From positions 9,618,655-9,682,654 of the forward strand of contig NC_134033.1 in NCBI RefSeq assembly GCF_964204645.1: a stretch of 64,000 nt of DNA. Direction: 5' to 3'. The DNA comes from Tubulanus polymorphus. Taxonomy: Eukaryota > Animalia > Nemertea. A model generated the notes under the pieces. It did no database searches. It was given only the letters and a program-made list of their open reading frames with translations, and was not told the DNA's origin. Below are positions 9,575-53,500 of this stretch, piece by piece (within the stretch, counting starts at the first letter, position 1; every line of letters starts with the position of its first letter). Both the position numbers and the translations under genes were made by a program.

Positions 9575-9993
9575 GGTAAAGGACATTCCAATTCATTTAA
9601 TATTAATTTTGTTTGAAAATATGTATGAAATCTTAAAAGTGATAATATTAATGGTAAACTTGGTTTATTCAAATGATCATTCCAACTTATACCACACCCT
9701 GCTGTTGCACAATAAACTGCAAAATTTAATTGGTTCTGCCAATACTTCATATTAGATTTTAATAACTATTGTTTTGCCTAATTCAAATTTTTAAAATTAA
9801 TTGTTTATACATGAAATATATTTTCCATTTTAACTTTAAAATTATAAGTTTCAGTAACATAAATATCTAAATTAATTAATGAATTTAAACTAAATTTTTA
9901 TATGAAATATTTTTATTAAAATCTAGAATATTATAATGCTGGAATATTATATTTAATTGATTTATTATATTGGAAAGCTTTTGGAAACCCCAT
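9575..9993 (-). pseudogene. Conserved Polinton-like hypothetical protein (WQNQLNFAVxCATxGCG family), truncated by the BEL junction
   Basis: MGFPKAFQYNK... start at 9993; ORF segment MKYWQNQLNFAVYCATAGCGISWNDHL...RFHTYFQTKLILNELECPLP. Confidence 0.65.
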
Positions 9994-10150: not shown

Positions 10151-11331
10151 TTTTTAGCCCACGTGGGACTTTAGTCCCAGCGGGCTATTGCGTTCACTTT
10201 TCGTTCGTCGTCCGTCCGTCCATCCGTAGACAGAATCCAGTTATTTTGGGAAGTTTTGAAGACGCTTCAATGTAATGTCTTGATATTTGGGTTACACATG
10301 TATCTACCCTAGACACATCTTCAGCCCAAAAACTGGCCCTGTCAGATTCAAGATGGCCGACATTTTTGAACTTTTTTAGGGGAATTTTGACGACGCTTTC
10401 ATCAATCACCTTGATCTTTCGGATATATGTGAAACCCCCAGGGCCCACCATCATAACAAAAATTGTGTCGATCGGACTCAAGATGGCCGTCCTATGACCT
10501 TTTTAGTGGCCAAAAATGTCAATTTTGGCCCGAATTCTGAGTCCTGTAGCTTCCTACTGGTTTACCATTTCTCATTGCAATTTGTGATGGGTATTCTTTG
10601 GAAAGGGATGTTTTATACCTGATGCAGGTATTTTTCATATGCCAATTATGACGCAATTGGCGACCATCTTGGTGTCACCAGTACTCATTCGTAAGTGGGA
10701 AAAAGTTTTTCCACATTATATTGATACCTAAGCGTATTTTGTTGTGGTGATTTTCAAGGTCATTGGATTTTGTATATGGCCACCAGGGGGCGTTGAATAA
10801 TGCAATATCTTAGCATTTCTATATTATATTCGTACTTATGCATATTTTGTAACCACAATCAATTGGAACGTTGTAGCTCATGACATCGTCTATGATTGTG
10901 GTGAGTTTCAAGGACATTAGTTATTCTATATGGCCACTAGGGGGCGTTGAATAATAGAATAACTTAGTATTTCCTTATCATATTGGTACCTAGACATATT
11001 TTGTTACCATGATCGATTGCAAAGTTGTAGTTCATGACATGTTCTATGATTGTGGTAAGTTTCGAGGTTATTGGGTTTTGAATGTGGTCACCAGGGGGCG
11101 TTAAATAGTAGAATAACTTAGTATTTTCATATAAGATTGGTAACGAGGCATATTTTTTATCACAATCAATTACAAAATCGTAGCTGCTGACATGTTCTAT
11201 GATTGTGGTGAGTTTCAAGGTCATTGATTTTTGTATATGGTCACCAGGGGACGTTGAATATTGAAATTGTTAGATTGTTGAGCATTTGGAACCACTTCCC
11301 AAGTGGGCATGGTGTCCCTGGACCCCTAGTT
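10151..11331 (+). mobile_element. Non-autonomous Helentron-associated (DINE-1/HINE-like) element
   Basis: T-run flank, subterminal IR gcccac[g/t]tggg...cccaagtgggc, 5' palindrome gggactttagtccc, (GTCC)n microsatellite, internal ~150-bp tandem units, 3' hairpin gtccctggac. Splits a Polinton-like membrane-protein gene. Confidence 0.8.
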
Positions 11332-16773: not shown

Positions 16774-19608
16774 TGCAGAGCTTCTCGGTACCTGTGGTGA
16801 CAGGTCTGCATTAAAATAGATGAAATGAAGGAAAACTTCACTTTTTATGGTCCTTCAAAGTAATGAATATAATATAGATTGCTAACCATAGATAAAGTTA
16901 ATCTTAAGTTACTATAAAACAATAATTATAAGTAAGACCTCACACGGCAGCTCGCGCCATTTTGCAGAGCTTCTCGGGACCTGTGGTGACATGTCTGCAT
17001 TAAAACTGATGAAATGAAGGAAAACTTTAATTATTATTGTCTCTTTATAGTAATGGCCCAAGACCTGACATGACAGGTGGGACCTCAGGTGACAGATCGA
17101 TTCGCTAAAATGAAAATCGTTATGACTGAACCGATGATAGGCGATTAGAAGATATGATAGGCGCGGATTTAGAACAAATGATAGCCGATAAGAACACAAA
17201 GAACATATCGTAGTGCTTTCTGAATATATTATTCAAAAACAAAAAACAAACTATGATGTGTTATGAATTCATTTAAGAATTTATGTTTGTCCGTTTATAA
17301 AAAGTTGTTGAACTATATCGCCTTATAATAATAAAGATGGAATGATTGTGAATTATTGGAGAACATTGAACGAATTGTTTACAATTAATTTATTTTTTTG
17401 TAACACGAAACATAAAAATATCAAGATCAGGCAAAATGATACCAGTAGTGCCTTATGTAATCATAATCAGTATTAATAACAATCGTTATACTCATTAAGA
17501 TTAGGCCCTATATTATTTTATATTATTACTAATTACTCGCAATATAATTAATTAACCAAGTGTACATACAATTTAAAAACATTTCAGTCCAAGCTTATAA
17601 GTTGACATAGATAAATTAGACATAACACTGATTAATTAGTGAGGCCTCACACGGCAACGCGCGCCATTTTGCAGAGCTTCGGGACCTGAGGTGACAGGTC
17701 TGCATTAAAACGGATGAAATGAAGGAAAACTTTAATTTTTATGGTCTCTTTATAGTAAAGAGTATAATATAAATTGCTAACCATGGATAGAATTAATCTT
17801 AAGTTACTATAAAACAATAATTTTGAAGCGAGACCTCACACGGCAGCTCGCGCCATTTTGCAGAGCTTCTCGAGACCTGTGGTGACAGGTCTGCATTAAA
17901 ACTGATGAAATGAAGGAAAACTTTAATTTTTATGGTCTCTTTATAGTAAAGAGTAAAATATAGATTGCTTAACATGGATATAGTTAATCTTAAGTTACTA
18001 TAAAACAAAAATTTTGAAGCGAGACCTCACACGGCAGCTCGCGCCATTTTGCAGAGCTTCTCGAGACCTGTGGTGACAGGTCTGCATTAAAACTGATGAA
18101 ATGAAGGAAAACTTTAATTTTTATGGATTCTTTATAGCAATGAATATAATATAAATTGCTAACCATGGATATAGTTAATCTTAAGTTACTATAAAACAAT
18201 AATTATGAAGTGAGACCTCACACGGCAGCTCGCGCCATTTTGCAGAGCTTCTCGAGACCTGTGGTGACAGGTCTGCATTAAAACTGATGAAATGAAGGAA
18301 AACTTTAATTTTTATGGTCTCTTTATAGTAAAGAGTATAATATAGATTGCTAAACATGGATATAGTTAATCTTAAGTTGCCATAAAACAATAATTATGAC
18401 GCGAGACCTCACACGGCAGCTCGCGCTATTTTGCAGAGCTTCTCGAGACCTGTGGTGACAGGTCTGCATTAAAACTGATGAAATGAAGGAAAACTTTAAT
18501 TTTTATGGACTCTTTATAGCAATGAATATAATATAAATTGCTAACCATGGATATAGTTAATCTTAAGTTACTATAAAACAATAATTATGAAGTGAGACCT
18601 CACACGGCAGCTCGCGCCATTTTGTAGAGCTTCTCGGACCTGAGGTGACAGGTCTGCATTAAAACTGATGAAATGAAGGAAAACTTTAATTTTTATGGTG
18701 TCTATATAGCAATGAATATAATATAAATTGCTAACCATGGATATAGGTAATCTTAAGTTACTATAAAACAATAATTTTGAAGCGAGACCTCACACGGCAG
18801 CTCGCGCTATTTTGCAGAGCTTCTCGAGACCTGTGGTGACAGGTCTGCATTAAAACTGATGAAATGAAGGAAATTTTTAATTTTTATGGTCTCTTTATAG
18901 TAAAGAGTATAATATAAATTGCTAACCATGGATAGAATTAATCTTAAGTTGCCATAAAACAATAATTATGAAGCGAGACCTCACACGGCAGCTCGCGCCA
19001 TTTTGCAGAGCTTCTCGAGACCTGTTGTGACAGGTCTGCATTAAAACTGATGTAATGGAAAAAACTTCACTTTTTATGGTATCTTTATAGTAATGAATGT
19101 AATATAAATTGCTAACCATGGATATAGTTAATCTTAAGTTACTATAAAACAATAATTTTGAAGCGAGACCTCACACGGCAGCTCGCGCCATTTTGCAGAG
19201 CTTCTCGAGACCTGTGGTGACAGGTCTGCACTTAAACTGATGAAATGGAAAAAACTTTACTTTTTATAACCTTTATATAGTAATAAGTATAATATAAATT
19301 GCTAACCATTGGATAGAGTTAATCTTAAGTTACCATAAAACAATAATTTTGAAGCGAGACCTCACACGGCAGCTCGCGCCATTTTGCAGAGCTTCTCGAG
19401 ACCTATGGTGATAGGTCTGCATTTAAACTGATGAAATGGGAAAAACTTCTCTTTTTATGGTATCTTTATAGTAATGAATATAATATACATTGCTAACCAC
19501 GGAAATAGTTACTATAAAACAATAATTATGAAGTGAGACCTCACACGGCAGCTCGCGCCATTTTGCAGAGCTTCTCGGGACCTGAGGTGACAGGTCTGCA
19601 TTAAAACT
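16772..19608. repeat. ~191-bp tandem satellite, about 12 units, interrupted at ~17053-17640
   Basis: Core gagacctcacacggcagctcgcgccattttgcagagcttctcgagacctgtggtgacaggtctgc recurs every ~190-191 bp (ORFs at 17799, 17990, 18181 are spaced by 191). Confidence 0.95.
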
Positions 19609-20187
19609 GGTATAAATAGAAAAAAAACTTCATGCTTTAAATTGATGATTAGATTTACAATCAGTCTCAATAAAATCAGTTTCTATATTGCATTCGGCTC
19701 TTTTACATGTACTTCATAAAGACAATGAATATAAATAGTGATACTTCATGACAGTGAGGTGTTGCCGAACTGTGATAGTGAGCAGATAATTTTCAGTGTC
19801 TTATTGCGGAAACGAAATATCAAGACCTCGATTCATCTAGCGAAAATATTCTCTTATAATGTGCTCTTACTTCTACATTACTTAATTCATCTATGCCTGA
19901 AACTTATTTTTTCCCTTTAATACAGAAATAAGTCATAGTTTACACATAAATATTTTCTTCTTATAAATCTACCTTTCAAATGAATTATTTGTCAGAACAA
20001 TTTCCTTATCGTTATTGTTGAATCATTTTCGATATTAACGACGGGTCAGAATATTCATTCAACTCAAAATGTTCTTCCATTCGTCTAGCACATGTCTAGA
20101 TATTTCGCCGTTTCGTCAAATATTGTCATGAGTTTGGGTTTTGACATGACAGGTTCTGGAAACTCTGCAGACAGACATCAATCGCCT

Positions 20188-20225: not shown

Positions 20226-20466
20226 ATGTTTCGCGTATTTTTTCAGTCTGGACAGCGGCAGTGCTTTAAACTCGGAGGGCGATTACTTATCACATCAGCA
20301 CCAGCAAGACAATGTCATCGAGCAGCAGCAGCAGCAGTAACAACTGTAACGACTACCGCGCGGGGTTCAACCAGCGGCAGCAGGTGCACCCCGTTTCCAG
20401 CCCCTGTGCTCGTTCCTTTTACCCCGCGAGTTTTATCATTTCCTGCTCCTCGTCGCGATATGCAAG
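20226..20466 (+). CDS. Rhodanese-domain sulfurtransferase (TSTD3/TSTD1/Hsp67B2-like), exon 1: mitochondrial presequence
   Basis: MFRVFFQSGQRQCFKLGGRLL... is R/S/T/A-rich with almost no acidic residues. Donor CAAG|GTCAGT in phase 1 joins exon 2 to give ...MQVRGYS (R-x-Y/S processing-type motif). Confidence 0.75.
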
Positions 20467-24545: not shown

Positions 24546-25169
24546 AAATAAAAAAACAGTTTCCCTACCTACCTGTACCCTACGAAATTTTGGACGTGGA
24601 CGGTAAAACATATATTTTTGGCCTTGATATGACTACAAATTAATTCTTTGAGAAAGATGAAATACAATGATACAACTTACAGTCACAACTTAAAAAGATT
24701 TTTCATCAGCAATGCCCTTGCCAAACAAGCTCCCGTTTTCAAGGTAAACCACACTTTGGCCACGGGCAATTTATTTGGAGTTGCCAAAAAATTAATGGGA
24801 TTCGGAACAACTATCCACAAAGTGTATGCTACTTGTTTTATTCATTTGCATGTTAAAAACTCTACTTATACGGCGGTTTTTACGGTATATTGATACCTTG
24901 GCATGTTTCGTTCGAATGCTATCAATTGCAAAATTGTTACTCATTACATGCTCTATGATTGTGAGATTCAAAGTCAATGGTTTATATATATGCTCACCAG
25001 TGGGTGTTGAATATTGTAGTTAATGGATTTTTAGGCACTACCAAGTGGCCATAGTGTCCCTGGACCACCAGTTTGAAATTTATAAATGATTGTTTACAGT
25101 TTCAATGTGAAGTTGCAGAAAAACCTTTATCGTTGTTTTGCAGGTACATTTTTGAAATTGTATTTTTAG

Positions 25170-25319
25170 TTCGGGGTTACAGTGATCATCCAACTAGTGA
25201 ACTAGAATATGAAGATATTATGGCTTTGATTGAGAGTAAGGATATCCAACTGTTTGACGTACGTGAGCCGTCGGAAGTCAAAGAAACTGGAATGATCAAA
25301 TTGGCCACAAATTTACCCC
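25170..25319 (+). CDS. Rhodanese gene exon 2
   Basis: tttttAG| acceptor and C|GTAAGT donor, phase 1/1; encodes LEYEDIMALIESKDIQLFDVREPSEVKETGMIKLATNLP (rhodanese DVRE..E...G.I..A.N.P motif). Confidence 0.92.
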
Positions 25320-26303
25320 GTAAGTGTTGATGAGAAAGGAGCTTAAGCTACATTATTCTTAATAGTTGCTGAAATGTCCCTAGTGGTGGCTCTTGCCAGC
25401 ATCAATCAGCAGCTACCCACTGAGCTCACCTCTCACATTCTCTTTGTATCTGGTGGATAAGACTTCCAGCAACGAAATGGACTAGATTTACCTTAAAAGA
25501 ACTCATCCTTGATAAGACTCTGTTTGTGTACAGACATATCTAGTTTCCCCGCGATTGACACCTGCTGTAGTTTCTATGTGTGAATTGTCCCTTGGTCTTT
25601 CGATAATGTTTAGATACGAGGTACATGGGAACTAGACAGAAGACTTTCGTTGTCTGTTGCAAAATATTCATTTCAAGGATTACCATGTACACTCAACAAT
25701 TATTGGGATGACAAAACACTTGAGCTATCAAGGACCCTGCACTGCACTTCTATGTACTGTGTAGGAGTGTAATGCACTTGCCGGAATGTTATTGGCCAAC
25801 GTGCGCCGTGGGAACAAAAGAAATTTGAATCCTCGTTACCTACGTCAAACAAACTGAATCAAAATCAAACAGCAAGTTATTTTTAAAATATAAAAATATA
25901 TCAAATTTAGCAAACATTGCCCAAAAATCTCAAACTATCAACAGTCCATTGCCAATAGACCAAATGATCACCAGATAATTCCTAAATATCAATAAATAAG
26001 ATTTTTTCTCAAAAGAATTTCTGAAACTACCCAAAAGATTACCAAATAAGGATGTATCATGTGATCGAATGATGCTTACTAAAATGAACTTTTGTCTGGG
26101 TATGAAATTCAACTACGCAGTAACCTGAAACACAATACTAGGGGTCTGGAATTTTTAACAGATTTACTGCAGTAAAACGCATAAACACACACTGACAAGA
26201 CCAAACGCTGCACATGAGAAAAGGAAATGTCCCACCCATGTATGGAAAACTAAATAAAATCTTATTACACTATTTTAATCCACTAATTAAACTTCCACCA
26301 GTC

Positions 26304-26306
<3 letters not shown>

Positions 26307-26365
<59 letters not shown>
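26307..26365. repeat. (TA)n microsatellite
   Basis: About 29 TA units. Confidence 0.95.
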
Positions 26366-26367
<2 letters not shown>

Positions 26368-29289
26368 CAAAACAACTCCGTCCTCACTACACTAATCTAC
26401 TTGAGTGCTAGTCTACCTCAATAAAATATACACCACAAAAAACCAGGGTCACAGGAGTGAACTTATTTTTCTTTTCTAAAGGGGCTCCCTCAAAAAGTGG
26501 AATCCTTTAATGCCACGGATTGACGGCACAAATTATGGTTTTACAAATGGGTGTTCACGAATACGATTTTAGTCTATTTTAATTACGTTTTACGGAAAGA
26601 TCTAACGTTGTTACGATTCTTGAAAGATTTGTCGCGAAAGAAGTTTAAAAATGTTTATTCTTTTATCAGCAACTATAGGAGTCCTTTAGCGTACGCTGCA
26701 CATTCGTGCTAGTTGATGTACGCGCCAAGCATCCAATCAATAGCACTGTGCTTACACAGACCGCTGGCGTGCACGTGGCTTCCTGGCTCCTGCGCGTTTA
26801 TCTATACATCTATCAGCTGGCTGTCACTGGGGCAACCTACTACTATTGATCTATTGTATAGATCTTTCGTGTGCCTTATAAAGATACAGCACATACTGCT
26901 GTAAAAATAACAACAACGATGCTTGCAGGCGTTGAACCATTTTGAATCATTTCCATCATCATGGAAGTAACCCGACTTAAGTGAATTTATTTGTATATCA
27001 ATCCATGATTCCGCATTTTCTGTTTGTTCAAAATGAAAAATAAAACGACCTCCCACCGCAAACCAGTGGCATCGGTTCTCTGCTGTAATCAGTGTGTCTG
27101 TTGTAAATAATGGTGGTTACCGCGGCCTGGATCGTGATGATTTAATGGATTTAGACGTCATTTTTATCTGATGTGAATGATGAAGCTAATCAATAATGAA
27201 CCGACAAGAAGGAGAAGGGTGCCCGCCATTTTAAAGATGTTACACGGCTATGTTTCCTTGCATGAATGTTTCGTAACACATAGGCCTATGAAGAGCCTCA
27301 CACTCATTTTTCTGTTCCAACTAAGACAAGTCTAAGTAGTGACCAGTTAGTATAGGCCTAGTGTGTGAAGGTGACAATTATAATCTACAAGTCTCATGCC
27401 AGTATTACAAACGTACAATATCATATTGACAATTAAAACGAAAAAACATGAGAAATGCAAATTCAAGTATAAATATAGCTGCAACGCAGCGATAACGGGT
27501 TTCTGTTTTTCTGGATAGAATGTCGTACAGGGATGCGTGCAAACATTTCACCCGAAATCTATAACACGGATATGTTGACCCATGCGCTACTACGCGCAAA
27601 GTACTAATGTGCCAAGTTTAGGGGAAATAACACAGACCTGCTTACCCCTACGGGATTTCCATATTTGCTACGGATTTTAATAGCTAAATACGGAAGTACG
27701 GATGCTCCGTAAAAATTACGGTTTTTATCCGTACTTTTCTAAATACGGATGTGTTTTATCTTCCTTCATGAAAATATGACTATAGTAAATAAATATGGCT
27801 ATATCATCACATCTGTGAATACGGTTATGAACTTTAAAAAATGGGAGTACAGGTTCGTTTACTTCTGCTGCTCGTAAATTGGGTCAGAATATTGATTAGC
27901 CCTGAGTTACGGCAGTGGCGTCACCTCCTTTCCTGTAATTGATGCATAATTCCTATGTTAAGCCTATGTCAATGGTCTGGCCGATTGATAATCATTTGGA
28001 TGCTTAATACACTACGCTCGAAGCTATTTTTAGCACACTCAAATGCAATTTCATTAGACTGTAATTTCACTACTAATGGGCGAATTGAGCGGATTAAGCA
28101 CAAATATATTTCGTAGTTGGTTTTTCTTTATGGTGTGCAAAGTTGAAAGCCGTGGATTTCATATTTTTTGAGAAATGTACCAAAGAGTTCCAAAAATTGT
28201 ATCTATTTGAGCACGTTTTTTTATGCAGCATCTTTAAATGTCCAAAATAACACATGTGAAAATTCAATGCTATTTGCTTCGGAAGACCTTTATATCACCA
28301 AGATCTGTTCGGTAGTTATGGGATCTCAAAATCTTGGTCCTATGAAATTTGTGTTGCCCCGGTTTTGACTTCCATCATGATGTCATAACATTGAACGAGG
28401 TGGATCAGCTGGTGCACGTTATTTCACAAACAAAATGGCGGAACGATTGAATAGGTTGATATTCATCATTTCTAGCGCGAATACCGATATTAAAGGCGTA
28501 TGGTATAACGATTTATTGTGTGCGATGTGTTCAATGATTCATCTAGTTTTGATATCCCGTGCATAAGGTGACGTTGCATCAAGATATCTGATGAAAATGT
28601 GGTTTCAAAATGCAGAAATTTACTTCCGTGTTCGACACACGGCTGATTCACTGATAGCATCGAATTTTCAGAGATGAGTCTGATATTTACACGACTGGAA
28701 TACTTGTTTTATCATCATTAATTGATGTCATTTTATGAACGTTCGCATTAGCGATCCGTTTTGGAGCCTGATTATTTGTATTAGTTTGTTAACTGGGGCA
28801 CAGTGGAGCGTTCGCTTTGAAAACAGTCGTGTGCAGTCGCGTAGCCTTATACTCTCGTGTTCACTGCGTGTTTGTTTCAGTTATAGAGTATGCGCGCCAC
28901 GGTGTAGGTCGCCCGTAACAACGATTTGTCTGAGTGAAGATGTAAGCTACTTGAAGCAATCCTATCGTGAAAAAATCATGTCAGTCGATAAACTTTGTTT
29001 CGTCAGTATCCGGCACTGACTGGCCTCAAATTTGAAGATCTTGGGAGCTTCTGTCCTGATTGGTCCGTAAGTTAAAAATGAAAAAACTTCCGAAGAAACC
29101 CAGGCTCTCACCAAGTTTGTACCCTATCTTATCGGGTCACTCAAAGTTTAAGTTGTTTTACATCATTCAAGGGATGTATTACAATTATGAACATGTTCAG
29201 ACAAAAGGCCCATAATAAATTTTTCGAAGATTTCATTCCTGTTATAAGTCAGTTATCATTAAAAGTTCACACTGTTCAAAATTTTGTCC

Positions 29290-30515
29290 TTTTTAGCCCA
29301 CTTCGGACTTTAGTCCCAGCGGGCTATTGCGTTCGCTTTTCGTCCGTCCGTCCATCCGTCCGTAGACGGAATCCAGTTATTTTGGGAAGTTTTGAAGACG
29401 CTTCAAGGTAATGTCTTGATATTTGGTTGATACATGTATCTACCCTAGGTTCATCCTCAGCCCAAAAACTGGTCCTGTCAGATTCAAGATGGTCGACTGG
29501 CAGCCATTGTTGTTCGCCAAAATCAGCACTTTTTACACATCTTCGAAGTTTTTGATGGATATTTTGAAGACGCTTTGATCAATTTCCTTGAATGTTCATA
29601 TATATTTGTATCGCCCAAGGGCCCATCAGCATGAGAAAAATTGGGTCGATCAGACTCAAGATGGCTGTCCTTTTTGTGCCCAAAAATGTCAATTTTGGCC
29701 TGAATTCTGAGTCCTGTAGCTTCCTAATGGTTTCCCATTTTTCATTGCAATATGTGGTGGGTATTCATTGGAAAGGGATGTTTTATACCCGAGACAGGTA
29801 TATTTGATTAGGCAATGACACAATTGGCGGCCATCTTGGTGTCATCAGTACTCATTCGTAGGTGGAAAAAAGTTTTTCCACATTATATTGATACTTCAGC
29901 ATATTTTGTTACCACAATCAATTGGAAAAGCGTTGCTCATGACATGGTCTATGATCGTGTTGAGTTTCAAGGTCATGTGTGTTTGTATAAGGCCACCATG
30001 GGGCAATAAGTTAGTATTTCTATATTACATTTGTACCTATGCATATTTTGATACCACAATCATGTGGAAAGTTGTAGCTCATGACATGGTCTATGATCGT
30101 GGTGAGTTTCAAGGTCCTTGATTTTTGTATATGGCCTCCAGGTAGCGTTGAATAGTAGAATAACTTAGTATTTCCTTATTATATTGGTACCTAGGCACAT
30201 TTTGTTACCATGATCAATTGCAAAGTTGTAGCTCATGACATGTTCTATGATGATGGTCAGGTTCAATGTCATTGGCTTTGCATATGGTCACCAGGGGGCG
30301 TTGAATAGTAGAATAACTTAGTATTTCCATATCATATCGGTAAGGAGGCATATTTTGTTATCACAATCAATTACAAAATTATAGCTGCTAACATGTGCTA
30401 TGATTGTGATGAGTTTCAAGGTTGTTGGAAGGGGCATTGAATATTGAAATTGTTAGATCGTTGAGCATCTGAAACCACTTCCCAAGTGGGCATGGTGTCC
30501 CAGGACCCCCTAATT
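29290..30515 (+). mobile_element. HINE/DINE-1-like element, more diverged full-length copy
   Basis: Same 5' and 3' termini and internal repeats as 10151-11331. Short fragments also at 23457-23507 and ~24890-25073. Confidence 0.8.
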
Positions 30516-32407
30516 TATTTTGAAGGTAGGTTTAATGTCTGAAGGCAAAATAAGAATAAAGATTTCTTTTTAAATGATTATTTTCCTGACTTTATTAATA
30601 GATATTTTCACCCTTGGGGAAAACCCACTACTCAACCTTTCATCACCGGATAGTGGCAGCACATACCTGATACCTTTTCCATAATGCTAAGTAGATACAC
30701 TCCCGGGAAAAGATCGATATTGCTAAATTGAATGCAACATTTTGAACATACTGTCTGTTAATTAAGAACACTTAAGGTTTTTATCCTTCCGATCCTCAGA
30801 TTTTGGTTCTCATTGACGGGAAGAACAATGGAAAATTTAAAAAAGTAAACAATATTCAATTTAATTTTTTTAATTTATTCTGTTTCCTGATACTACTACT
30901 CTAAAGGAAACTACTGATTTTATGATATAAAACTAATGATGCTTAATCAGAAACTACTGACAGACAAATATTCAGTAAAACTCCTGATGTGAGCTTATTT
31001 TTGCTGAGATAAATATATAATACTACTGATGTTGAAATTTTGAAAGCAGGTCTGATAACATTGAGAATAACAAAGATACGGTGTTTTATCATTCTCTATT
31101 GGCAGTTTAAGCGCATTCGGTTATGACTAGTCCGACAAATAGTCGACTAGGTACGAAAACCGAATTTGGCCCAAGGCGCTCGATAGATTCAAGATGGCAG
31201 CTCCGTGAAATAACCAATACACAAGTTGGGCCTACATATAGGGTTAACTATGCAGGAGGGAAGGCCTAGTAAGAGTGACAATTCGTCTGACAAGTCACAA
31301 GATCAGATGGGGACTACAATTCATATATGAAATTGACGTCAAATAACCATCATAAAAACATCACTAACTGTACCATCATTCCCCGTCGTTACTCACTGTC
31401 ACTGCTGCTGACATTCTTTATGTGTGCAGTGGGTAGGTATTTTCAACTGCCTTTCTTCTTCTATGACATCACCAACGCCGCTGCGTCACTATGTGATGTA
31501 CAAGGGACCTCCAATTTGTAATGTATGTGATGTACAACAAGATAGCACCGACGCTGACATTTTCTGACGCTAACTAGAATGGCCGCTGATGCGGCCTAAT
31601 GAACCGGGCCAATTCAATGATATATAAAAAAACATGTACAGGTGCAATAAATAAATGAACCCTGTTGAATTTTCGTGATATCCGCAAACAAAACAAATAT
31701 TATTTTAGAATGTTTAAAAGGAACTGCTTTTTATAACAGTATGAATAAAGTTATTTCACACACTAGGAAGTACATTTTGTGCTTGTGAATGGTCGAACCC
31801 CAGTTATTCACAGTAACCTGTGATTTGGAGATTCTCGGAGCCTTCCTTCTTTATCTATTTATGAAATGACGTCACGAACTTCCAGATTTCAGCAAGTCCC
31901 CGCCATGATAGGTGATTGCTATTTCCACCGGTGCTATCTTTAAGTAATTTTAAGTTTTAAATAGGATGCGCAGGACATCTATAAAATCTATGCGGAGAAA
32001 GCGATTGTTATATTACTATCAGAGTTGAACATATCGTTTAAAAGCTGTTAGTTGTGGACTATGATAGATGAATTTTATGTACGAAAAAAAAGTGGAAAAT
32101 ATGTAATGATAATCAGCAGGAATGCAATAGGGTTTCTGCGAAAGCAGCAGAAACCATTTATTAAGTTTAGTTTATGTTTCAATCCAGCGTCATATACATA
32201 ACATGATTGTTACTGAAAAACTTCAGATATTTCTGAAAAATTATGATAGGTTAGCAGGCCTGTATATGCAATTAATCTTGATTTACTTTGATTTGCTTTG
32301 ATTTTTTTCACTTCCTTTTTCATCTGAATACTTCTTTACATTTACTGTTATCAGGTTTTGATTTTTATGATCAAAAACGCCACAAATCTATGTATTTCTT
32401 ATTTCAG

Positions 32408-32570
32408 TGGGAAAATTGAAAGACTCGTTGAGATTATCTGAATCATCATTTTTACATCGTTTCGGCGTGCCAAAACCTGCTATTCACGATAAAAATCTGA
32501 TATTCTATGGACAAGGTCCTATTAAAAGCAAAGCCGCTTTGGAATTGGCTGCTAAAGTTGGATATAAGAA
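32408..32570 (+). CDS. Rhodanese gene exon 3A (163 nt; active-site Cys replaced by Gly)
   Basis: tttcAG| ... AA|GTAAGT, phase 1/2, open: (L)GKLKDSLRLSESSFLHRFGVPKPAIHDKNLIFYGQGPIKSKAALELAAKVGYK(K). Not in the supplied ORF track. Confidence 0.85.
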
Positions 32571-33047
32571 GTAAGTCCACAATGACCATGAATTCTGTGT
32601 CCGATTGATATGTGTATAAACACTGCTGAAAACTTAAGTTTTAAGTTAAGTCAAATGTCATACCATATCGGAATCAAGTTAATAGTCTTAGAGTTTAGCT
32701 AAGATCATAAGTTTTGTTTTTCCTTCTCCTCTGGGTTAGAAGTTTTTAAGATAAGACGGTGGACGAGTTGTACCATTTATTAGATTATGTCGAAAGGCTT
32801 TGAATCACCTCGTCCTACTAACTGTATGATCTTCAAGTTTAAGCTACTCTGATTATTGATTATGAGGCTTTGAAAGGAGAATCAGGCTGCGAAAACATGA
32901 ACAAATGTTTGGAAGTTCCATTGGTGGAATTTGATAAAGAAAAGAAGATTCAATCTTTTAGTGTGATAGGCCTTAATGAAAAGTTGGCAGTCACTTTAGT
33001 TGGCAGTCACTTTAGTTGAACTATTAAGGTTCAATTTACTTGACTAA

Positions 33048-33513
33048 GGGACGGTTCATTAAGTACGTACGCAAAAAAAAGTACCTTTTTTCAAGGTCCT
33101 ACCTTGTGTACGCATTTCGTATATTGCCGATGACCTCCTGTACGCAATGATTCATCATGTAGTATAAAACATAAACACTTGTTTTCTACTGGTCGGTTTA
33201 TTATAGTATGAATAAATTCTATTATTTGAGACTAATTATCACGCCATATAGCTTGTCCCTCTTGGAGGGATTTACTAGGATGGTGTTTTTTACAGGGGGC
33301 AGTGAATTCATTATATTGTTCCAGACTCATGGCTGAACAACTACCTAGATGAGTAGCCAGGCTACTGCAAGATAATACAGTAAAAATTAGTGCACTATGA
33401 TTTATTAAGTATGTACACTTTGTGTAAATTGCTACCTAGCTTTGTATACTGATCGTAAGCTTTGCCGTTGAGGTCCTACCTAGGGCTTGCATATGTACTT
33501 AATGAATGGTCCC
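33048..33513. mobile_element. PIF/Harbinger-type MITE
   Basis: TIRs gggacggttcattaagtacgtacgc / gcatatgtacttaatgaatggtccc, preceded by TAA. Confidence 0.65.
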
Positions 33514-35453
33514 AAAGTGATGCTCAATATTAAAAATGGTGGTATGTTACACCTTTAGGTTCTACCTTTTTTTGGCTAGAGGGAACAATTCTTATAAATG
33601 AAATTTGGTATACGCTTAGCTATTTAACATGATTACTTGAGCCTGGTCTGTTAGTTACGAGGGATGTTTAAGTCCGTTTATTCAATCATTAAAGTTCTAT
33701 ACATAAACTGTTGTTTGGGCAAAATATGTTCTATTAGTCAGGTATGTTTTATGATCTATAAAAACTGCCTCTAATAACTCCATTCACGTCAGTATTCATC
33801 TGAACATTCCCAGCTAAGTTCCTGGATCACCCCCTACTTTCATTATCTGTTATTGGATTTTTAATGACGAAATTGTTTTTATACAGAAATCTGGCCATTG
33901 TGGACTCAGTTGCACAATAATGAATCATTTTGTTGTAAGCGTATTCTTGTAAGCGTTATAAGCGTGTTTAGCGTATTCTTATGGGCTTTTCCTTCTTCAT
34001 AGAAGATTTGGTCGTATATACATGTACCAGTGTATCTCGCTTGCTCTTGGTTCTTCTTTTAGCAGGTGTCATTGATATACTTGTTCAATGGTAATCATAG
34101 CATAAAACCTGCATGATTTGGATCATTTGGGATTGAAATGATTAGTCTGGTATATAAGAATCCGGATTAAGCATCATACCTCACATAAACTATTGTATAG
34201 TTCAACTGAAAAATATATCCCAGACTAGAATTAAACTCATCCGAATTTTGCGGGTTTGACTGTGTATGATGCATGATGATCAGCTTTAATTAATCGAGTC
34301 AAATTTTTGCATGAACTCACTATTATGTTGAATTATATTTCTAAGCACCCAGCCAAACTTAAGCTGGGAGTGGGTGTATAGCTTTACCTGCATCCGAATA
34401 TGCCGTGTGTCGGCCGCCGCAACTGATGTTAACAGCCAAAATCTTTCCAACAGATTCGCCACAAAACCTGTTACTTCACATGTGGTGGCAATTTCAGGCT
34501 GGGGGCAATAGAGGTGTTTGTCGCATTTGAGTTTAGAGTCATGCATGTACGGCATTTAATTTCTTCTTTACTCGGTGCTTACATAATAGCCAATAGGATT
34601 ATTCATTGCTGCTGGGCTATCTGAAACCTGCTTGAGCCAGTATATTACATATAATTTTCAACATTTTTCCCTTGTTTCTTGATTTTTACCATTCGTATGT
34701 CAAGTTTCGTCTGTCAGCTTTTAGCCATTGATCCCCCCATCGGCCGGGACACGAATCCCTGCCACGCTAGACCGGGTGCCCAGGGAAATTGCTGTTTGAA
34801 AAATGCAGCACCAATTAGATTGCTCGTTGTATAATCACTGAGGTAAATTTCACGGAAGAACTACAAATAGGAAAACCTGCGCTAGAATAAAACGGGATAT
34901 CTGATTGGCTAATCATGACATCTTCTAAGCTGCGCATGTAGCTGTGCACTCGGTCAAGTGTGGCAATGTTTCGTACCATGGCAATCTCCATGCCATCAGG
35001 TTAGAATCCCTTACGGTTGGATGGGAGAAAATGAGCCAAATTTCAATGAATTTTACCATTCTTGCTTTGATGCTTGACCTTATTTCTTGATAATGATGTC
35101 ACGGGGAGAGCCCTTCATGCTAGTTCCGGCTAGTGAGTCATGGGGATAACGTAGACCATGTGTATTATCATAGTTGAACCTGTTTACTACAGTGGTGTTG
35201 AGCGCAGAGATTTCATTCTTTGGTGTGCAGATCCCAGAACAAACCTTTTTTGTGCCAAAGTAAACTGTACTGGGTTCAAAATGAACCAGTGTTTGGTCAT
35301 TTTAATCATATCTTATTAGGATAAACTAGATCAGACTTCTAAACCCTTTGTCTTTCACTGTAAAGCCAGTTGATAATTTCTGGCCACCCCTCCTGAGAAC
35401 CCCGATGAAGCTGATGAAGACCTAATGATGATCATTGTTTCTGTGGTTTGTAG

Positions 35454-35616
35454 TAGGTGAGGTTGGTGATGCTTTCAATATGAACCCAACGCAATTTAAA
35501 GCGACTTATGGAGTTCAAATGCCCAATGTTGACTGCGACAACATAGTGTTTTATTGTCTAGCTGGGATACGCAGTTTAAATGCCACCAACACAGTCAAAC
35601 AACTCGGATTTACTAG
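35454..35616 (+). CDS. Rhodanese gene exon 3B (163 nt; catalytic Cys loop)
   Basis: tgtAG| ... AG|GTATGC, phase 1/2: (L)GEVGDAFNMNPTQFKATYGVQMPNVDCDNIVFYCLAGIRSLNATNTVKQLGFT(R); FYC..G.RS is the rhodanese active-site loop. Confidence 0.92.
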
Positions 35617-36351
35617 GTATGCCTTTTGTTATTGTATGGTAAAAACTTGCTTAATCCTGGTTTGTTCAATCTGGAGTTTGATCTAGGCCTATACAGATCA
35701 CATTGAAATGGTTAAACTGGCTCACGCCGGACAAAGTCAAATTTGACCCAAGCTTATTTATAAATTAGGGGGTATTTACTCGTTAATCAATCTAATTACT
35801 GAAATATCAAACCAATGGTGTGGCCAGCGATGTGAGTCACTTTCTGAGCCAGTTAGCATTAGCATGGAATAATTGATCAAATGGGTATCCCGTGTAGAAC
35901 CTGTGTTGAATGGCTCAATAATGCTTGTGTGATCACACATAAATGATCAATATGTATTTAGAATTTTCCGCTCTGCAGTTCCACAGTTTTGAGTAAGACA
36001 AAGCCACTATTTTTGCAAATTTGTTTCTGCAATTTTAAAGGCGGGCATTGCAAGACTTCCGGAAATATTTTGGCATTCTACTTTGCCTAATAAACGAATT
36101 TTACTAAACTTCTTTTTGTTTTTATTCATGAGCGATAGTTTACTAAGCATAGGCTCGCATTATGCTGAAAAACTGCTCTGCGGACACTCGGAAACTTTGC
36201 CATGACGTCATCACCTATTCATTAGCAAAGCAAAATAATGTTGGTGGTGCCACATTACGGGCCGCAAAAGCTGTTTTTCAGTATTACGCGAGCATAAACT
36301 ATCGCTGATAGATGAAAACACAAACAACTTTATGCCAATTCATGATTTATC

Positions 36352-37125
36352 AAGGCTGGCTTATGTTGACAAGCAATGCGACGCCTACCGACTCCTACTG
36401 ACGCAACTGAGAGCATCCGTGATCGCAGCCCAGCTCATGTTGACTGCGCTCCGATTCGCAGCAACTGATGACGACTAGCGGGATATGAGATCCTCCCAGT
36501 TGCTCCCCTGCATCGGTTACGATTACTAGCAACTGCACTAGCTCAGATGGTCACGTTAAAAGCATTTTGAGAATAAATTTGAATTATTGGGAAATAAATC
36601 TCTTTTACTAAAGCTATTCATTTAAGATCTTTATCTTTCTGATTCTGTTTTGAATACAATGTGCTAGCGACATCATATAAAGATGGCCGCTCTTGACATA
36701 ATTCTACCAATTTCGTTTCTAGATCTTCGGTCCAGTCCTCTGCCGTGCTGGAGGTTTGGTTTACATTTTGAACTACTTGAATTTAAAAGTTTATGACTAA
36801 TTACGAATGACGCTAAATAGCAGTGATAATTTGTACTAAGTATATGCGGTCTCTTATTGGCTGGAACCCCTGTGCCAAGTTCCGTCACATCGCAGATGAG
36901 CTTATGTTGGTTGCGATCGAAAGCAACTGTCCGCCTATCGTTGGCCGGAGTAAAACATGGGCAACTTGCCGGATAGGGCTCGACAAGTTTGTAGGTGTCG
37001 GGTTGCCGTCGCAAGCGATTGAGCTGCAACTGGCAGCCTCTCGTAGGCCGCTAGTTGCCGCTAATTGGTGATAAACCCAGTTGCGTCGGTAGGCGTGGTG
37101 TTGCTTGTCGACATAAGCCAGCCTT
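36352..37125. mobile_element. MITE with ~41-bp TIRs (PIF/Harbinger-like), nested in a foldback element
   Basis: aaggctggcttatgttgacaagcaatgcgacgcctaccgac / gtcggtaggcgtggtgttgcttgtcgacataagccagcctt; the flanks rejoin the sequence seen at 22140-22175. Confidence 0.8.
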
Positions 37126-40086
37126 TAGTGAATGCAAATTCCCTACTGCACATACTGATGCATAAATTCACAGATGAATTGATTATTAACGAAATTACGG
37201 ACTAAAACGATGCACAGAGAGCAGTGTGACAGACGTCAGTAGTAGCAGTGTGTCAGTAGTAGTTATTTTTAAACATTTTCTTGCCAACTATGCGTCCGCG
37301 AAACGCACTTTGATTAACTGCAATAATTCAGGACTCGACCCGTAATGAGTGAAATGCTGATTGTCATCGAATGAGGATGTGCCACATTGGAAATAGCCAT
37401 TACTTTCTAAAAAGTTATAGGCCTAGTCGTTCAAGGTCGCTCTTAGTGCTCGGAAAACACTTCTAATTTCAAAAATTTCCTTCGGGGAGGGACCCCCCCA
37501 AATAGCTTTGCGCCTTTGGTACTCGCAAATGCTGACAGCTGCGCTGTCAGCTGGTTCGCGTGTGCATGGGCATCCCCAGGATTTTAGGGGGGTTCGTTTT
37601 TAGGGATTGGGGGGTCAAGAGAGAACTGAGAAAATTTTTGAAAATTTCATGCAAGTTCTGGTGCAATCTGAGGACGATAGATTTGCTTTGCATGTATCGT
37701 TTGTTATTTTGCTAATTTAGCAGATGCAGACCATGTGCTGATGTCGTTGACGTTTGAAAATTCAAAAAGGGGGTTAGTTCGAACTACCACACCCTCCTAG
37801 GGACGCCCGTAGTGTGTAACTAAAGAAAAATACCAGAAAGATTTCTGGAAATATTATAGCTAGGTGCTGGCAACACTGCATGTGCAACTAAGCATATGTT
37901 AATACGATCATGTGTTGTAGAATTATTCATTCTCCAATTACCAAGTCCAATTTAAAATGACATGTATTTCACTGCTGAATTGACATTCCTGAATTCTGAA
38001 TCAACAGCCTTTAGTGGATGACTTGTCAATAGTGGCACTTGGCAAGATTCAATCCTTAAGTTAAGGCGTCAGTAGGCGCAGATTCTTTACTTATCCCAGA
38101 TGTAAAACTTAATATAACTCGTTCTGGAAAAAGGAATAAGGAATTCCCTAGGTCACCGAGTATTTGATTTTACCTGCCATAAGTAGAAGAACATATCTGG
38201 ATGTTTCTATATTTCAAAAATTGCTGGGATAGTACACAGCCCTGAAAGCAATTTTTAATAGTAAATTGTGGGAAGTGTCATTTCGGGGCATTGCATTCCA
38301 CTAGCTTTTTGGAAATTACCAACATGCATTGATGTACGTATTGTCTCGAAATTAGCCAGTCTTGCATTTTTCATATCGGGTCAATCTTCACTGACATTAC
38401 TCTTGCACTTGAACTCAAAACTGTGGAACCAATCACAAATTATCTGGATTAAGCTGGTTTTTAGTGTATTAGATCTGTGTTGTTTATTTAGCTTGCTTTT
38501 AATAAATGCATGTAAATGTGTAATTTCTGAAGTTTGTTCTAAACAAAACTTTTTAACATTTGAATTTCAAGTCACTGACAGTTAAACTCCCTTAATCATA
38601 TAAGGTTATATCTGATATTTCCAATCCTTTCATCATTTGTAGTTCGAATTTCCTTTATGATTATCATCCTGGATTTCCTGTGTAATCACTTCACCTTGAA
38701 GATCAAAACTAAGTGGGTTCTACTGTATGTAAAAAAATTTACAATTATGTGTCAATTCAATAGGGTAGTGATTTGTAAAGGCTGCCATCGTAAAATTAGT
38801 ATCACTGAAATTTGAAACCGGACTTCATCTATTCAGTGGTTGGGATTTCATCCAAATTGACTGAAATTCACAGTTCTATTATATTAATCTCGACTATATC
38901 TTCTACAACTGCACTAATAACTATACTAATACTGTAATCTCCTTATGCAGTTATTTATCGGCAAAAACTGGGTATGTAGCATAACACATCAGTCTCTTTT
39001 TACTATACTAATTAACATTTTTTTCTGATTCCTTGTTGTATTTTTACAAATGAAATTAATGCTTCACTGCATCAAGCAAATTTAAAGGCATCTACTTCAA
39101 TTATCAGTTAAAATGCATACAACTCAATTTCTTTTTTAAAATTCAGTTTTCGTTTACTTGAAAGATTTTAAGAAACTATATCATGGCGAAAGAATTCAAA
39201 TTTTAGTTAACATTGTATAACTGTATATGTGCAACTGAGTCCACGAACAGCTCTAAAATGCTTTTTGGAATGGGAAGGGGCATTGAACATCGAAATTTTA
39301 AGATAGTGAAGCATTTCAGGAAGGTATAATGTGACAATTATAATGATAATATCATTTCATTTCAACGTCATAAAGAGAGATATACAAGAATATACAAATA
39401 ATGAAATATTTGAATATATGAAGTGCTCCAGTTAAAAATTTCAGTCAGACAGTATTTGATCACTATTTTTCCTTAATCAGTAAAAGTCTAAGTGGAACGA
39501 TTTCCCTAAATGAATTTAATCGCCCAGTTTAATCCTGACAATCTGTAATATTGCCAACTCTATTGGGGCTCCAGTAAAAATTGAACAAAAATTATATCTG
39601 AGTGTGTTTGAAAGTAATAAATAAAAGAAGTTTGTACAATTTTCATCCTGTCTTAATTTCACGTGCCGCATATGCAAAGGATTTTATTTATTGTCTGCTA
39701 ATCAGAGTCGCAAAGGATGCTGGTAAAAAAACAGTTACCGCACGCGTATTATTGTCTATATGAACAACAGTGTGGACCTTGATCCGAAAATCAATTTGAC
39801 GTATGTACACATAGCTGCCAAACAACACGAACAACAGTGACTGTATATACTGATAATTCATTTATTGTCACGTAACTTCTTTTCTCTCCCGTATTGAGTA
39901 CTGACAAAATATTTTTACCACGTGTCGTTTGTAATTTTCCCCGTTATCCAACCAATACGGACTCTCTGGAGCACTGATAAAGCAGAGGAGATTGGATTAA
40001 CCTTACAAAGGCCTATGAAAGTTTCATATCCCCCTCCAGTGTTCCCAGACTCTTAGTTTTATTATAATTTTTCATCTAAATTTCAG

Positions 40087-40141
40087 AGCTCGGCATTATG
40101 CTGGTGGTTGGGACGACTGGAGTAAGCGCCAAGGACGTTAA
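40087..40141 (+). CDS. Rhodanese gene final coding exon
   Basis: tttcAG| phase 2: ARHYAGGWDDWSKRQGR-TAA (rhodanese C-terminal Y.GG...W signature). 241+150+163+55=609 nt, i.e. 202 aa plus stop. Confidence 0.92.
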
Positions 40142-50520: not shown

Positions 50521-53500
50521 CCCACCGGCTCGTCCAACGCTGGTATCTTGAACAACGACGATATCTCCTATCTGTATGTCAGGATTCTGATGTTGCCACT
50601 TTGATCTTTCCTGTAAACGAGTAATGCTTCCACACTTGCTCAGTGACGAAATTTACTCTTTTCCATCGACCTCTATAGATATCATTTTCGGTAATTAAGC
50701 TTGTGTCGGTTTCAACCTTAGTTAAACCCATTTAATGATTCGGGGTAATGGCAACTACTGTTGTGTCTTCACATGACGATGCGGTCAGTGGTCGGCTGTT
50801 CATTATCCATTCTACTTTGACAAGAACGGTCCTCAGCTCTTCCTCAGATAGTGTCTGTCTATTTATCAGTCCGTACACAATCTTTCGTACGGACCTGATT
50901 TGTCTCTCGTAGTGACCTCCCATGTGACTAGACAACGCTGGATTAAATTTCCATTCTATGTCATCTTTTGTCAATTTTTCTTCAATGAGTAACTGCTTGT
51001 TCATTTCAAGTAAGTCTTTTCGCATTTCTTTACACGCTCCGATCAAGTTTGTACCATTGTCGGACCGTAATATTTTCGGTCTGCCTCTTCTATTAACAAA
51101 TCTTCTTATGGCTAGTAAACACGACTGGGTATCCAATCTACGCGCTAACTCAAGGTGAATTGCTCTTGTAAAATTAGATGAGAAAAACACTCCATACCGC
51201 TTCTCTTCACGCCGTCCGATTATCACGCGCAATGGTCCAAAGTAGTCGATACTCGAATTTTCGAATGCGTGCGTAGCAGATGTTCGGTCTTTTGGTAAGA
51301 CTCCCATCTTCTGCGTCTCTAACCGTGCCTGGTATTTTCTACATATGGTGCAATCTTTTAGGAGTTTTCTTACGACATTCGTCAGGCCAATTATCCGATA
51401 CTGCTCTCTCAATTTCGAGATGTTATGGTTTCTTCCAACATGACCTTCCATACAATGGGTTCTACGGATAAGTTTGCTGACCAACGGACAATAATCGGGT
51501 GTTTACCCTCGTGTGGGAGCAAACTATCATTCAATCTTCCACCAACTCGTAGGATGCCGCATTCGTCGATCTCGGGCATAGCTTTCTTAGGGGGCTACTC
51601 TTCCATACGGGTTGGTGTCGGTTTTAACACTTTCAATTCATTCGTAAAGTGTTTTCGTTGAATGGCTCGAATAACTGCTTCTTTAGCCTCCCGTCGAATA
51701 TTCACAGGACTTAATCCGTCGGAGGATTTCTTTCCAACCACAATCTCAACAAAAGTAAGGATCTTCTCCCATTCAGATATTCGATTCAATATTTCGATTG
51801 TGGCTTCGACGCCTTCAATATCGGTCGTTGGTTGCTCATCCGTGATGATGCGATAAAGCGTCGGCTGTGCAGACGTTTCTTCAACTGGCCAATCTGTTTC
51901 CGGTAACGCTAAGTATTTTGGTCCTTGTTGCCACAGAGTACCAGCTAGTTCTTTCGCGTTAACTCCTCTGGACGCAAGATTTTCCTTTCCTGGGACATGT
52001 TTCCAGTCTTCGACATGGGTAAGTGTTAAGATCTTTCCAATTCGGTTCCTGACGAAGACTGACGTTCTTATGGTGTCACTTCTTAAGTAATCCAGGACAA
52101 TTCTACTGTCCGTCCAATTTGTGCTTTTCTGTAGTGGTAGTCGTAGTTCTTTCTTGAGCTTTGCTGTTGTTCAAGGTCCTAGAACTGCTGCTACAAGCTC
52201 TGCTCTTGGTATGGTTTCTCCTTTGAGAGGATTTACCCTCGATCTTGCATAAACCAGCTTGACTTCTGTTTTGTTCGTGTTTTTGGTTCGGATGTAAGCG
52301 ATAGCTCCGTGTGCCTTTTCTGATGCATCGCTTAACACATGAAGCTGGTATGTGTCACTGGTATGTGGACTGTGACTGGTGATGCATCTTTCAAATTAAA
52401 TTTCGGTTACGGCTTGAGTCCCGTCTCTCCATGTCATCCACTGTTTGAGTTGTTCATCGGGAATCGGGTCATCCCAAGTCAGCTTCAGCTTACAGAGGTA
52501 CTGTGCTAGTATTCGACAATTAAGTATCCATGGTGATACTAGCCCGTATGGATCAAATAGTTTGGTCATATTTGATATCAGTTCTCTTCTTGTCTTAACG
52601 GTCTTCAAATCTGGTGCTCGATAGGTAAGTTTGTCGGTTTGCGGTTTCCACTTCATTCCCAGCGTGGGGTGTTCGCTGGAGTCTTCCTTTCCTACGTTTA
52701 TGTCGCTTCCTGCAGCAGCTCTCCGATCCTCGGGTATGTCGTCCAACACTTCTGGGTCTGTACTTGCGTACCTTCTCACTGGAAAGCCGTAGCGATCGGA
52801 TGCTTCATGAACAACCGTTACTTCTTTCTGTGCGCTCTGTGCATGCGTCCAGGAATTCAAATTATCGTCGACGTAGAATGCCTGGGTTGCTGCTTTACAG
52901 ATCTCTTTATCTCCATGGCGCGACTGTTCTACTAAGCCGTGTCTCAGTACGTGGCAATTGCTGGTGACGGTCTAGATCCAAATGGATGCACGGTCCATCT
53001 CCACTCTTCAGTATTTCCTAAATCATCTATCCATAAGAGTCTGTATACCAATTCCGATCTTTAGGGGATACTTAAATTTGATGAAACATTCCCTGAATGT
53101 CGCTGCTTACAGCGACTGGATATTCCCTGAATCTTATCAGGACTCCATCCAGTCTGTTGGTGAGATCAGGTCCTTTCATCAGAAAGTTATTCAAGGAGAT
53201 GCCGTTTTGCTGCGCTGCTCTGTCTTCAAAACAATAAAGTTACGCGTCACGGTTGTCTTCAATTCGTCGTTTGGAACTGCGGTTTTGGTTCGATACTCCA
53301 TGGTGAGGTAAATACCACTTTTCAATTTCTTCGTTCGGGACCCTCTCGATGTATCCCTTTTTCTTGAGTTCTGTCATCTGCTCGTGGTACTCTTCACTGA
53401 ATTTCTCATTCCTATTCATTCGTTTAATTACTCCCATCAGTCTCCTTTCAGCCATCAGTCTACTATTGGGTATAGGTGGCAATGGCCTTTATAGCGGTAT

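Follow-up and report, generated by a model that had tools for sequence, protein, structure and literature searches.

Alternative exons with and without the catalytic cysteine in a single-domain rhodanese gene of the nemertean Tubulanus polymorphus and other invertebrates

Introduction

In rhodaneses, the Cys of the active-site loop carries the persulfide. Inactive rhodanese domains carry Asp or Gly in place of this Cys, and the rhodanese domains of MKP and USP8 are non-catalytic. Together with the N-terminal domains of TST and MPST, and with mS67, a rhodanese-fold subunit of the trypanosomatid mitoribosome, these domains use the fold without or apart from sulfur transfer (mS67 is likened here by its fold). 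In the two-domain TST, the active site is hosted by the C-terminal domain only (PMC9369223; this and the other papers cited by PMC number are drawn on for parts of their text). Such non-catalytic rhodaneses are fixed domains or the products of separate genes. In contrast, we describe here a locus of the palaeonemertean Tubulanus polymorphus, RefSeq LOC141910900, in which an active-type and an inactive-type rhodanese are splice alternatives of one single-domain gene. The locus lies in a window of 64,000 nucleotides (contig NC_134033.1, positions 9,618,655 to 9,682,654 of the forward strand), to which all coordinates refer.

The best sequence and fold matches of this gene are proteins with a single rhodanese domain, namely human TSTD1 (PDB 6BEV), vertebrate TSTD3, and yeast Rdl1 and Rdl2 (3D1P, 6K6R). 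Yeast Rdl2 requires Cys106 and Arg111, the latter at the end of the loop, and the loop criteria for such enzymes place Cys as the first of six residues and Arg, Thr or Ser at the loop end (PMC8533005). Three single-domain rhodanese genes are reported in Drosophila, and the passages seen of that report describe no splice switch of this kind (PMC12189691). On the side of splicing, tandem duplicated mutually exclusive exons, in which homologous exons are swapped between fixed flanks, are known from PKM, KHK, FYN and OGDH, and from CG42249 of Drosophila. Twenty-one human tandem exon events date to Bilateria, and the catalytic residue of KHK is kept in both forms (PMC9741552). Moreover, nine mutually exclusive events touch catalytic sites, CG42249 being an example, and hence the general idea has precedent (PMC7954323). 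The Tubulanus pair differs from these known swaps in that the nucleophile itself is removed, and in being kept across invertebrate phyla while not seen in vertebrates.

In this study, we followed up an initial annotation of the locus made from the DNA alone. We consider it probable that one gene yields, by splicing of exon 3B or exon 3A, either a Cys-dependent sulfurtransferase or a binding twin predicted to be non-catalytic, that the two exons go back to a single ancient duplication, and that both proteins are mitochondrial.

Results

The gene lies on the forward strand. The coding part of exon 1 (20226..20466) provides the ATG and an N-terminal extension rich in Arg, Ser, Thr and Ala, and equals the N-terminus of RefSeq isoforms X2 and X3. 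Constitutive exon 2 (25170..25319) encodes the first half of the rhodanese domain, including the DVREP motif, and ends in phase 1. The alternative exons are the Cys-less exon 3A (32408..32570), which encodes the loop GQGPIK with Gly (codon 32509-32511) in the catalytic position, and the catalytic-type exon 3B (35454..35616), with the loop CLAGIR, its Cys codon at 35555-35557 and a NAGNAG alternative acceptor at 35457. Common to both forms, the coding part of exon 4 (40087..40141) runs to the stop codon and encodes the C-terminal RHYxGGW motif. As the initial annotation had claimed, exons 3A and 3B are each 163 nt long, flanked by AG and GT, and in phase 1/2; either one joins exons 2 and 4 in frame, and the complete chain of exons 1, 2, 3A or 3B, and 4 encodes 202 amino acids in each case. 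The pair was also rightly described as alignable without gaps yet deeply divergent: 13 of 53 residues (24%) and 69 of 163 nucleotides are identical, a homology that is still detectable by tblastn within the window (E 8e-5). The 3A peptide is 100% identical to a RefSeq protein, and the translations of the whole 3A and 3B forms match RefSeq isoforms X2 (XP_074657883.1) and X3 (XP_074657884.1), respectively.

The loop sequences are LIFYGQGPIKS in 3A and IVFYCLAGIRS in 3B. In the 3B isoform, Cys165 opens the six-residue loop and an Arg stands at its end, as in the loop criterion for single-domain sulfurtransferases. In the 3A isoform, GQGPIK does not begin with Cys, and residues 82-202, the mature domain, contain no Cys at all. 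Exon 3B thus keeps the Rdl2-type Cys and loop-end Arg, and 3A has neither. The 3B loop also resembles the loops CLAGVR and CLAGIR of vertebrate proteins named TSTD3, and CAKGVR of Rdl2 (PMC8533005). Because it keeps the two residues needed in the yeast enzyme, the 3B form is likely, by analogy, an active TSTD1/Rdl2-type sulfurtransferase working through a Cys persulfide. As predicted from its residues, the 3A form cannot form a catalytic-Cys persulfide. Both isoforms carry a precomputed PF00581 assignment and a single rhodanese domain; the exon 2 fragment matched PF00581 at E 0.0012, under the cut-off for such a fragment.

We scanned the 14.8-kb interval between exons 2 and 4 for open phase-1/2 AG..GT/GC stretches of 100-259 nt. 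Among the 177 candidates, only 3A, 3B and their sub-fragments scored above zero against the 3A and 3B peptides, and no third copy of exon 3 was present. A hidden exon resembling exon 2 could have turned the pair into parts of a tandem two-domain protein, as the initial annotation had cautioned. However, tblastn found no second exon 2 in the window, and this alternative is therefore excluded.

Five public sequencing runs, none of them on record as RNA, were compared with the locus as contigs. Run X2 contains the GT..AG joints 25319->32408 and 32570->40087, linking exon 2 to 3A and 3A to exon 4, in a contig of depth 306, and the GT..AG joint 35616->40087, linking 3B to exon 4, at depth 141. A third type of joint, 25319->40087, skips both exons in a contig of depth 333 and is not represented among RefSeq X1-X3; in all these cases, the depth of a contig says little about the level of expression. 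Exon 1 is joined to exon 2 in the same run, with a loose end at 25168. None of these spliced joints appears in runs X1, X3 and X4 where they were compared. The contigs of X1 over the locus are genomic, which speaks against a retrocopy. Run X5, guessed to be RNA, covers no exons and is uninformative. Hence, three of the four junctions expected from the initial annotation were recovered, and the fourth, 25319-35454, was not listed. A 3A->3B joint is not listed in run X2 either, although contigs cannot prove absence.

Since skipping of both exons is seen, the choice is of one exon or none. The proposed toggle between an enzyme and a pseudo-enzyme is supported by the 3A joints and by the conserved pairs described below, but its strict either/or character is not. 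Similarly, inclusion of both exons or of neither does shift the reading frame, as had been noted, but the stop codon of the skip form lies in the last exon and this form is seen as a joint. The stop codon lies 156 nt ahead of the last junction when both exons are included; when both are skipped, it falls 86 nt inside the last exon. Under the customary 50-55-nt rule for nonsense-mediated decay, the double-inclusion form should be degraded and the skip form should not, which fits the joints seen. Escaping decay, the skip form would yield a domain-less product of 158 amino acids that lacks an active site.

With regard to how double inclusion is avoided, the intron between 3A and 3B measures 2,883 nt, a spacing that makes steric exclusion by close splice sites unlikely. 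Both donors, GTAAGT and GTATGC, are of the ordinary GT type and do not present a U2/U12 incompatibility, in an examination that did not extend to distant branch points. When we looked for docking and selector pairing of the RNA, 2 of 15 flank pairs had lower energy than all 12 shuffles, which is about chance, in a comparison within the Tubulanus gene. Inverted repeats and flank duplexes revealed no convincing docking site.

On the 5' side of 3B, run X2 contains the joint 34149->35454 at depth 27, by which an intronic stretch (33462..34149, followed by a GT donor) is spliced to 3B at low depth. The 5' inputs listed for 3B have depths 27 and 23.5. Translation revealed no open frame from 33462-34149 into 3B, and this stretch may be a cryptic or poison exon, an alternative internal start or a splicing intermediate. 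Given that 34149->35454 is listed whereas 25319->35454 is not, it could be argued that exon 2 is followed by 3A or by a skip, and that 3B is used mainly from an internal start or a cryptic exon. We find this very unlikely. Exon 2 is followed directly by 3B in RefSeq X1 and X3, the upstream stretch offers no open frame, and the depths of the 5' inputs are well under that of the 3B joint to exon 4. In addition, the Cys exons placed after exon 2 in Lineus and in hemichordates share 43-48% identity with Tubulanus 3B.

Isoform X1 continues from 3B into a different last exon (36355..36478), which lacks the RHYxGGW end. The start of this exon falls within an arm of an inverted repeat (36352-37125) whose 41-nt arms are 90% complementary, repeat depth is high across 36342-37363, and no joint into this exon is listed in run X2. 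The last exon of X1 is likely an exonised transposon.

The same swap is annotated in other animals. Cys and Cys-less isoforms that are identical except for the exon-3 block were found in Lineus longissimus (X1/X2), Glandiceps talaboti (X2/X1), Branchiostoma (X1/X2) and Gordionus, while Ptychodera flava (X2/X1/X3) displays a three-way swap with one Cys-less and two Cys versions. The swapped block spans about 53 residues, between N-x-P-L and a (K/R)ARH-type motif. Counting Tubulanus (LOC141910900 X2/X3), the swap is present in six genera of four phyla, across Spiralia, Ecdysozoa and Deuterostomia, the hemichordate and amphioxus genera being deuterostomes. These RefSeq isoform pairs are the same proteins as ours or their orthologues, and the Cys-less members bear the names 'thiosulfate:glutathione sulfurtransferase-like' or 'TSTD3', which do not flag the missing Cys. 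Tubulanus 3A is 52% identical to the Cys-less exon of Lineus, 50% to that of Glandiceps, 48% to those of Ptychodera and Gordionus, and 35% to that of Branchiostoma. The Cys-less exon comes first, as in Tubulanus, in a merged amphioxus model (P0017) and in a Logan protein (P0107). The alternative isoform is thus kept in five other genera and three more phyla. A dead duplicate is a practically negligible explanation for 3A, which is spliced on both sides and conserved across phyla.

Our searches were non-exhaustive; within them, only the Cys-less form was retrieved from ticks, Varroa, horseshoe crabs, Priapulus, Trichinella, Patella, Argopecten and Eriocheir, and only Cys forms were present among the vertebrate, fungal and Exaiptasia matches examined. 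Among the vertebrate and fungal matches, none showed a Cys-less alternative exon, and 3A differs from them by the missing Cys, Gly+3 and loop-end Arg (positions are counted from the catalytic one). In a metagenome scan, none of 80 loci had its best match to the Cys-less exon. Three of 13 eukaryotic contigs examined (L034, L042, L044) share the intron positions of the Tubulanus gene and have a single Cys exon, which indicates that the duplicated unit is an old exon.

Other arrangements were also observed in this family. Amphiura has two isoforms, both of which keep the Cys. Duplications of the Cys exon itself occur in Ptychodera (P0177, P0180, P0182; loops CLAGVR and CRRGNR) and in Amphiura (P0196, P0074; CRGGVR and CRSGKR), where the alternative active loops may switch substrate preference. 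An origin of vertebrate TSTD1 and TSTD3 from the two Cys exons of either genus is unsupported, as these exons group within each species. In Watersipora subatra, a two-domain protein (P0014, XP_067948599.1) has Gly at the catalytic position of its first domain and a Cys-bearing second domain of the same family, a layout that echoes the two-domain TST.

A profile search yielded 190 exon-3 segments, of which 119 have the Cys, 67 are Cys-less and 4 are gapped at the catalytic column; a few Cys-less segments are repeats of multi-domain proteins and may fall outside the clade. For residue statistics, later hits were added, rows from P0215 onward (mostly fungal and unnamed) were left out and the set was dereplicated at 80%. 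In the resulting 68 Cys-less segments, the catalytic position is occupied by Gly (54), Ser (7), Ala (4), His (2) or Trp (1). Mean identity is 0.37 within these segments, equally 0.37 within the 121 Cys segments, and 0.30 between the classes. The Cys-less class loses Gly+3 and Arg+5, which are present in 98% and 96% of the Cys class. On the other hand, it gains Lys-30 (74% versus 12%), Glu+11 (75% versus 27%) and His+14 (53% versus 15%), as well as Lys+15, found in 62% of Cys-less segments and outside the top three residues of the Cys class. Because both classes have small or hydrophobic residues at +9, +13 and +16, the gained residues likely sit on the exposed side of the helix that follows the loop. 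The loop GxGPIKS recurs in nemerteans, a hemichordate, a priapulid, ticks and a limpet. The protein P0064 of Chamberlinius hualienensis, a member of the Cys-less clade, has a Cys immediately preceding the catalytic position (FCGKGPIR).

In a profile comparison, human TSTD1 was matched at E 4.8e-21. The model of a Cys-less relative (P0002, 73% identical to 3A) has a pLDDT of 93 and lies 1.1 A rmsd from human TSTD1. Its fold matches were TSTD1 and yeast proteins, followed by trypanosomatid mS67, and searches of the ESM Atlas retrieved generic rhodanese clusters only. Altogether, as judged from sequences and this model, the Cys-less exon defines a widespread invertebrate subfamily that is as conserved as the Cys form, has signature residues of its own and adopts the TSTD1 fold. 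We found no description of this subfamily in the literature searched, which left out subscription journals.

To date the duplication, we built a tree of 40 chosen segments, nearly all of them named, from alignments of 48-54 columns. All 15 rows labelled Cys-less, plus Chamberlinius (with Gly at the catalytic position), form one clade (95/92). Across 167 segments without the loop, the Cys or Cys-less label changes 8 times, compared with 47 in shuffles. Approximately unbiased (AU) tests on a quick 40-row tree rejected none of four constraints, within-species pairs included, in a setting where the free search missed better trees. Direct AU tests in IQ-TREE used 17 rows representing the six genera and four outgroups. 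They did not reject a single origin, with p 0.50 when the loop was included and p 0.25 when it was removed. For the same two alignments, they rejected one duplication per phylum (p 0.0003 and 0.0012) and one per species (p 4e-5 and 3e-6). Since duplications per phylum are rejected, the exon pair likely predates the protostome-deuterostome split. Several independent duplications converging on the same Cys-less loop would be the alternative, and convergent tandem exon duplication is documented for other genes (PMC9741552); the loss of resolution of the Cys-less clade without the loop columns would also agree with it. Nevertheless, we give convergence little credence, as per-phylum and per-species histories fail with the loop in or out and the exon order is the same in amphioxus, the Logan protein and Tubulanus.

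Elsewhere in the window, a tandem array of a 191-nt unit (10.4 copies) lies just upstream of the gene (17641-19609), and arrays of a 153-154-nt unit lie at 10742-11260 and, inside intron 2, at 30005-30422. Stop-free frames of 218-395 codons at 6451-9592 (-), 50732-55294 (-) and 60927-63071 (+) are probably retroelement remains or neighbouring exons.

Discussion

The initial annotation proposed that splicing toggles an active sulfurtransferase and a pseudo-enzyme. The absence of Cys from the 3A form agrees with the second part of this proposal, but the class-specific residues favour a function that is conserved in its own right over an off state. A separate binding role, toward a mitochondrial protein or RNA, is the most likely function of the 3A form, because of the gained residues and because the Cys-less form alone was retrieved from several lineages. 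Both isoforms begin with the same basic, acid-poor stretch, a putative presequence: the first 85 amino acids contain 12 Arg and Lys against 1 Asp or Glu, and basic, acid-poor N-termini ending in an Arg-x-Tyr-Ser-like site are found in the Tubulanus protein and in several of seven relatives. This common presequence suggests that the two forms share a compartment, and likely directs both to mitochondria.

An off switch or decoy is an alternative account of 3A, by which it would reduce the output of sulfurtransferase in taking the place of 3B, or compete with the 3B protein for thiosulfate, glutathione persulfide or thioredoxin, without a partner of its own. The 3A form does share its presequence, first half-domain and fold with the Cys form, and the loops of its class stay basic at +5 (Lys 63%, Arg 12%) and keep Ser or Gly at +6, features that could still hold an anion. 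However, exon skipping already supplies a null product, so that an off state needs no conserved folded protein. Moreover, the Cys-less class gained conserved residues away from the loop, and there are lineages from which a Cys-less protein was retrieved with no Cys isoform of the same gene, an observation that is suggestive only, the searches being non-exhaustive. We therefore regard the off switch as unlikely. A role as a Cys-independent ligand binder or catalyst, such as a sensor or carrier of sulfite, thiosulfate or phosphate acting through a loop opened by glycine, strikes us as slightly more doubtful still. It would account for the Gly found in place of the catalytic Cys in 54 of 68 segments and for the strong conservation of the loop among distant phyla, and a bacterial single-domain rhodanese has been modelled with a sulfate in its loop (PMC11284452). 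Against it, Gly+3 and Arg+5 are lost, and positions +1 to +4 of the loop vary across the Cys-less class as a whole.

In the model that we prefer, namely two proteins with separate roles, the exon would have been duplicated once, before protostomes and deuterostomes separated. Splicing of either 3B or 3A between the same flanks would then give two rhodanese-fold proteins of the same length, double inclusion being cleared by nonsense-mediated decay and skipping escaping it to yield the product of 158 amino acids. The 3B form would carry sulfur as a Cys persulfide, while the 3A form would bind a mitochondrial protein or RNA partner through a new face made up of Lys-30, Glu+11, His+14, Lys+15 and Lys+19/+20.

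Several points weigh against this model. The spliced joints come from one run of one study whose type is not on record, and the letters between the two sides of the X2 joints are marked 'not known'. The exon 2->3B joint is not listed in that run, and the full-length 3B mRNA rests on RefSeq models and, for this joint, also on the orthologous pairs. The skip depth (333) is close to that of 3A (306), so that exactly one exon is not strictly chosen. Outside Tubulanus, the pairs are taken from automatic protein annotations and not from genomic DNA. With respect to age, the trees rest on 48-54 columns only, the Cys-less clade of the 40-segment tree is no longer resolved once the loop columns are dropped, and histories with two origins lay outside the set of the AU tests. 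Finally, mitochondrial targeting is read from composition only.

Alternative exons that are homologous to each other are a known phenomenon, as are inactive rhodanese domains; we found no description of the two combined. Our literature search for a Cys/Cys-less exon switch in a rhodanese, which did not extend to subscription journals and supplementary exon lists, retrieved no description of one. The word 'rhodanese' is absent from the main text of PMC7954323 and 'TST' from that of PMC9741552, the supplements of both lying outside the search. On a longer time scale, we put at about even chances a history in which the active-site exon of a mitochondrial single-domain rhodanese was duplicated in the last common ancestor of protostomes and deuterostomes and one copy became a non-catalytic subunit of a mitochondrial complex or a sensor of sulfur status, maintained for more than 500 million years and lost in vertebrates. 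The same estimate covers the corollary that some phyla kept the Cys-less copy as one isoform, while in others it became the only product of its gene.

In the cases of mutually exclusive exons compared here, as far as covered by the parts of the sources drawn on, the swap tunes binding or regulation and mostly keeps the catalytic residue; in the rhodanese gene of Tubulanus, the nucleophile is swapped out. This swap is common to nemerteans, hemichordates, amphioxus and a nematomorph, and it reveals a widespread, predicted invertebrate pseudo-enzyme subfamily whose members are named in databases as active sulfurtransferases. The two forms share a presequence and a half-domain and differ in one exon, and this matched pair would offer a test of what the rhodanese fold does without sulfur chemistry. 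It also bears on the regulation of mitochondrial sulfur in marine worms exposed to sulfide.

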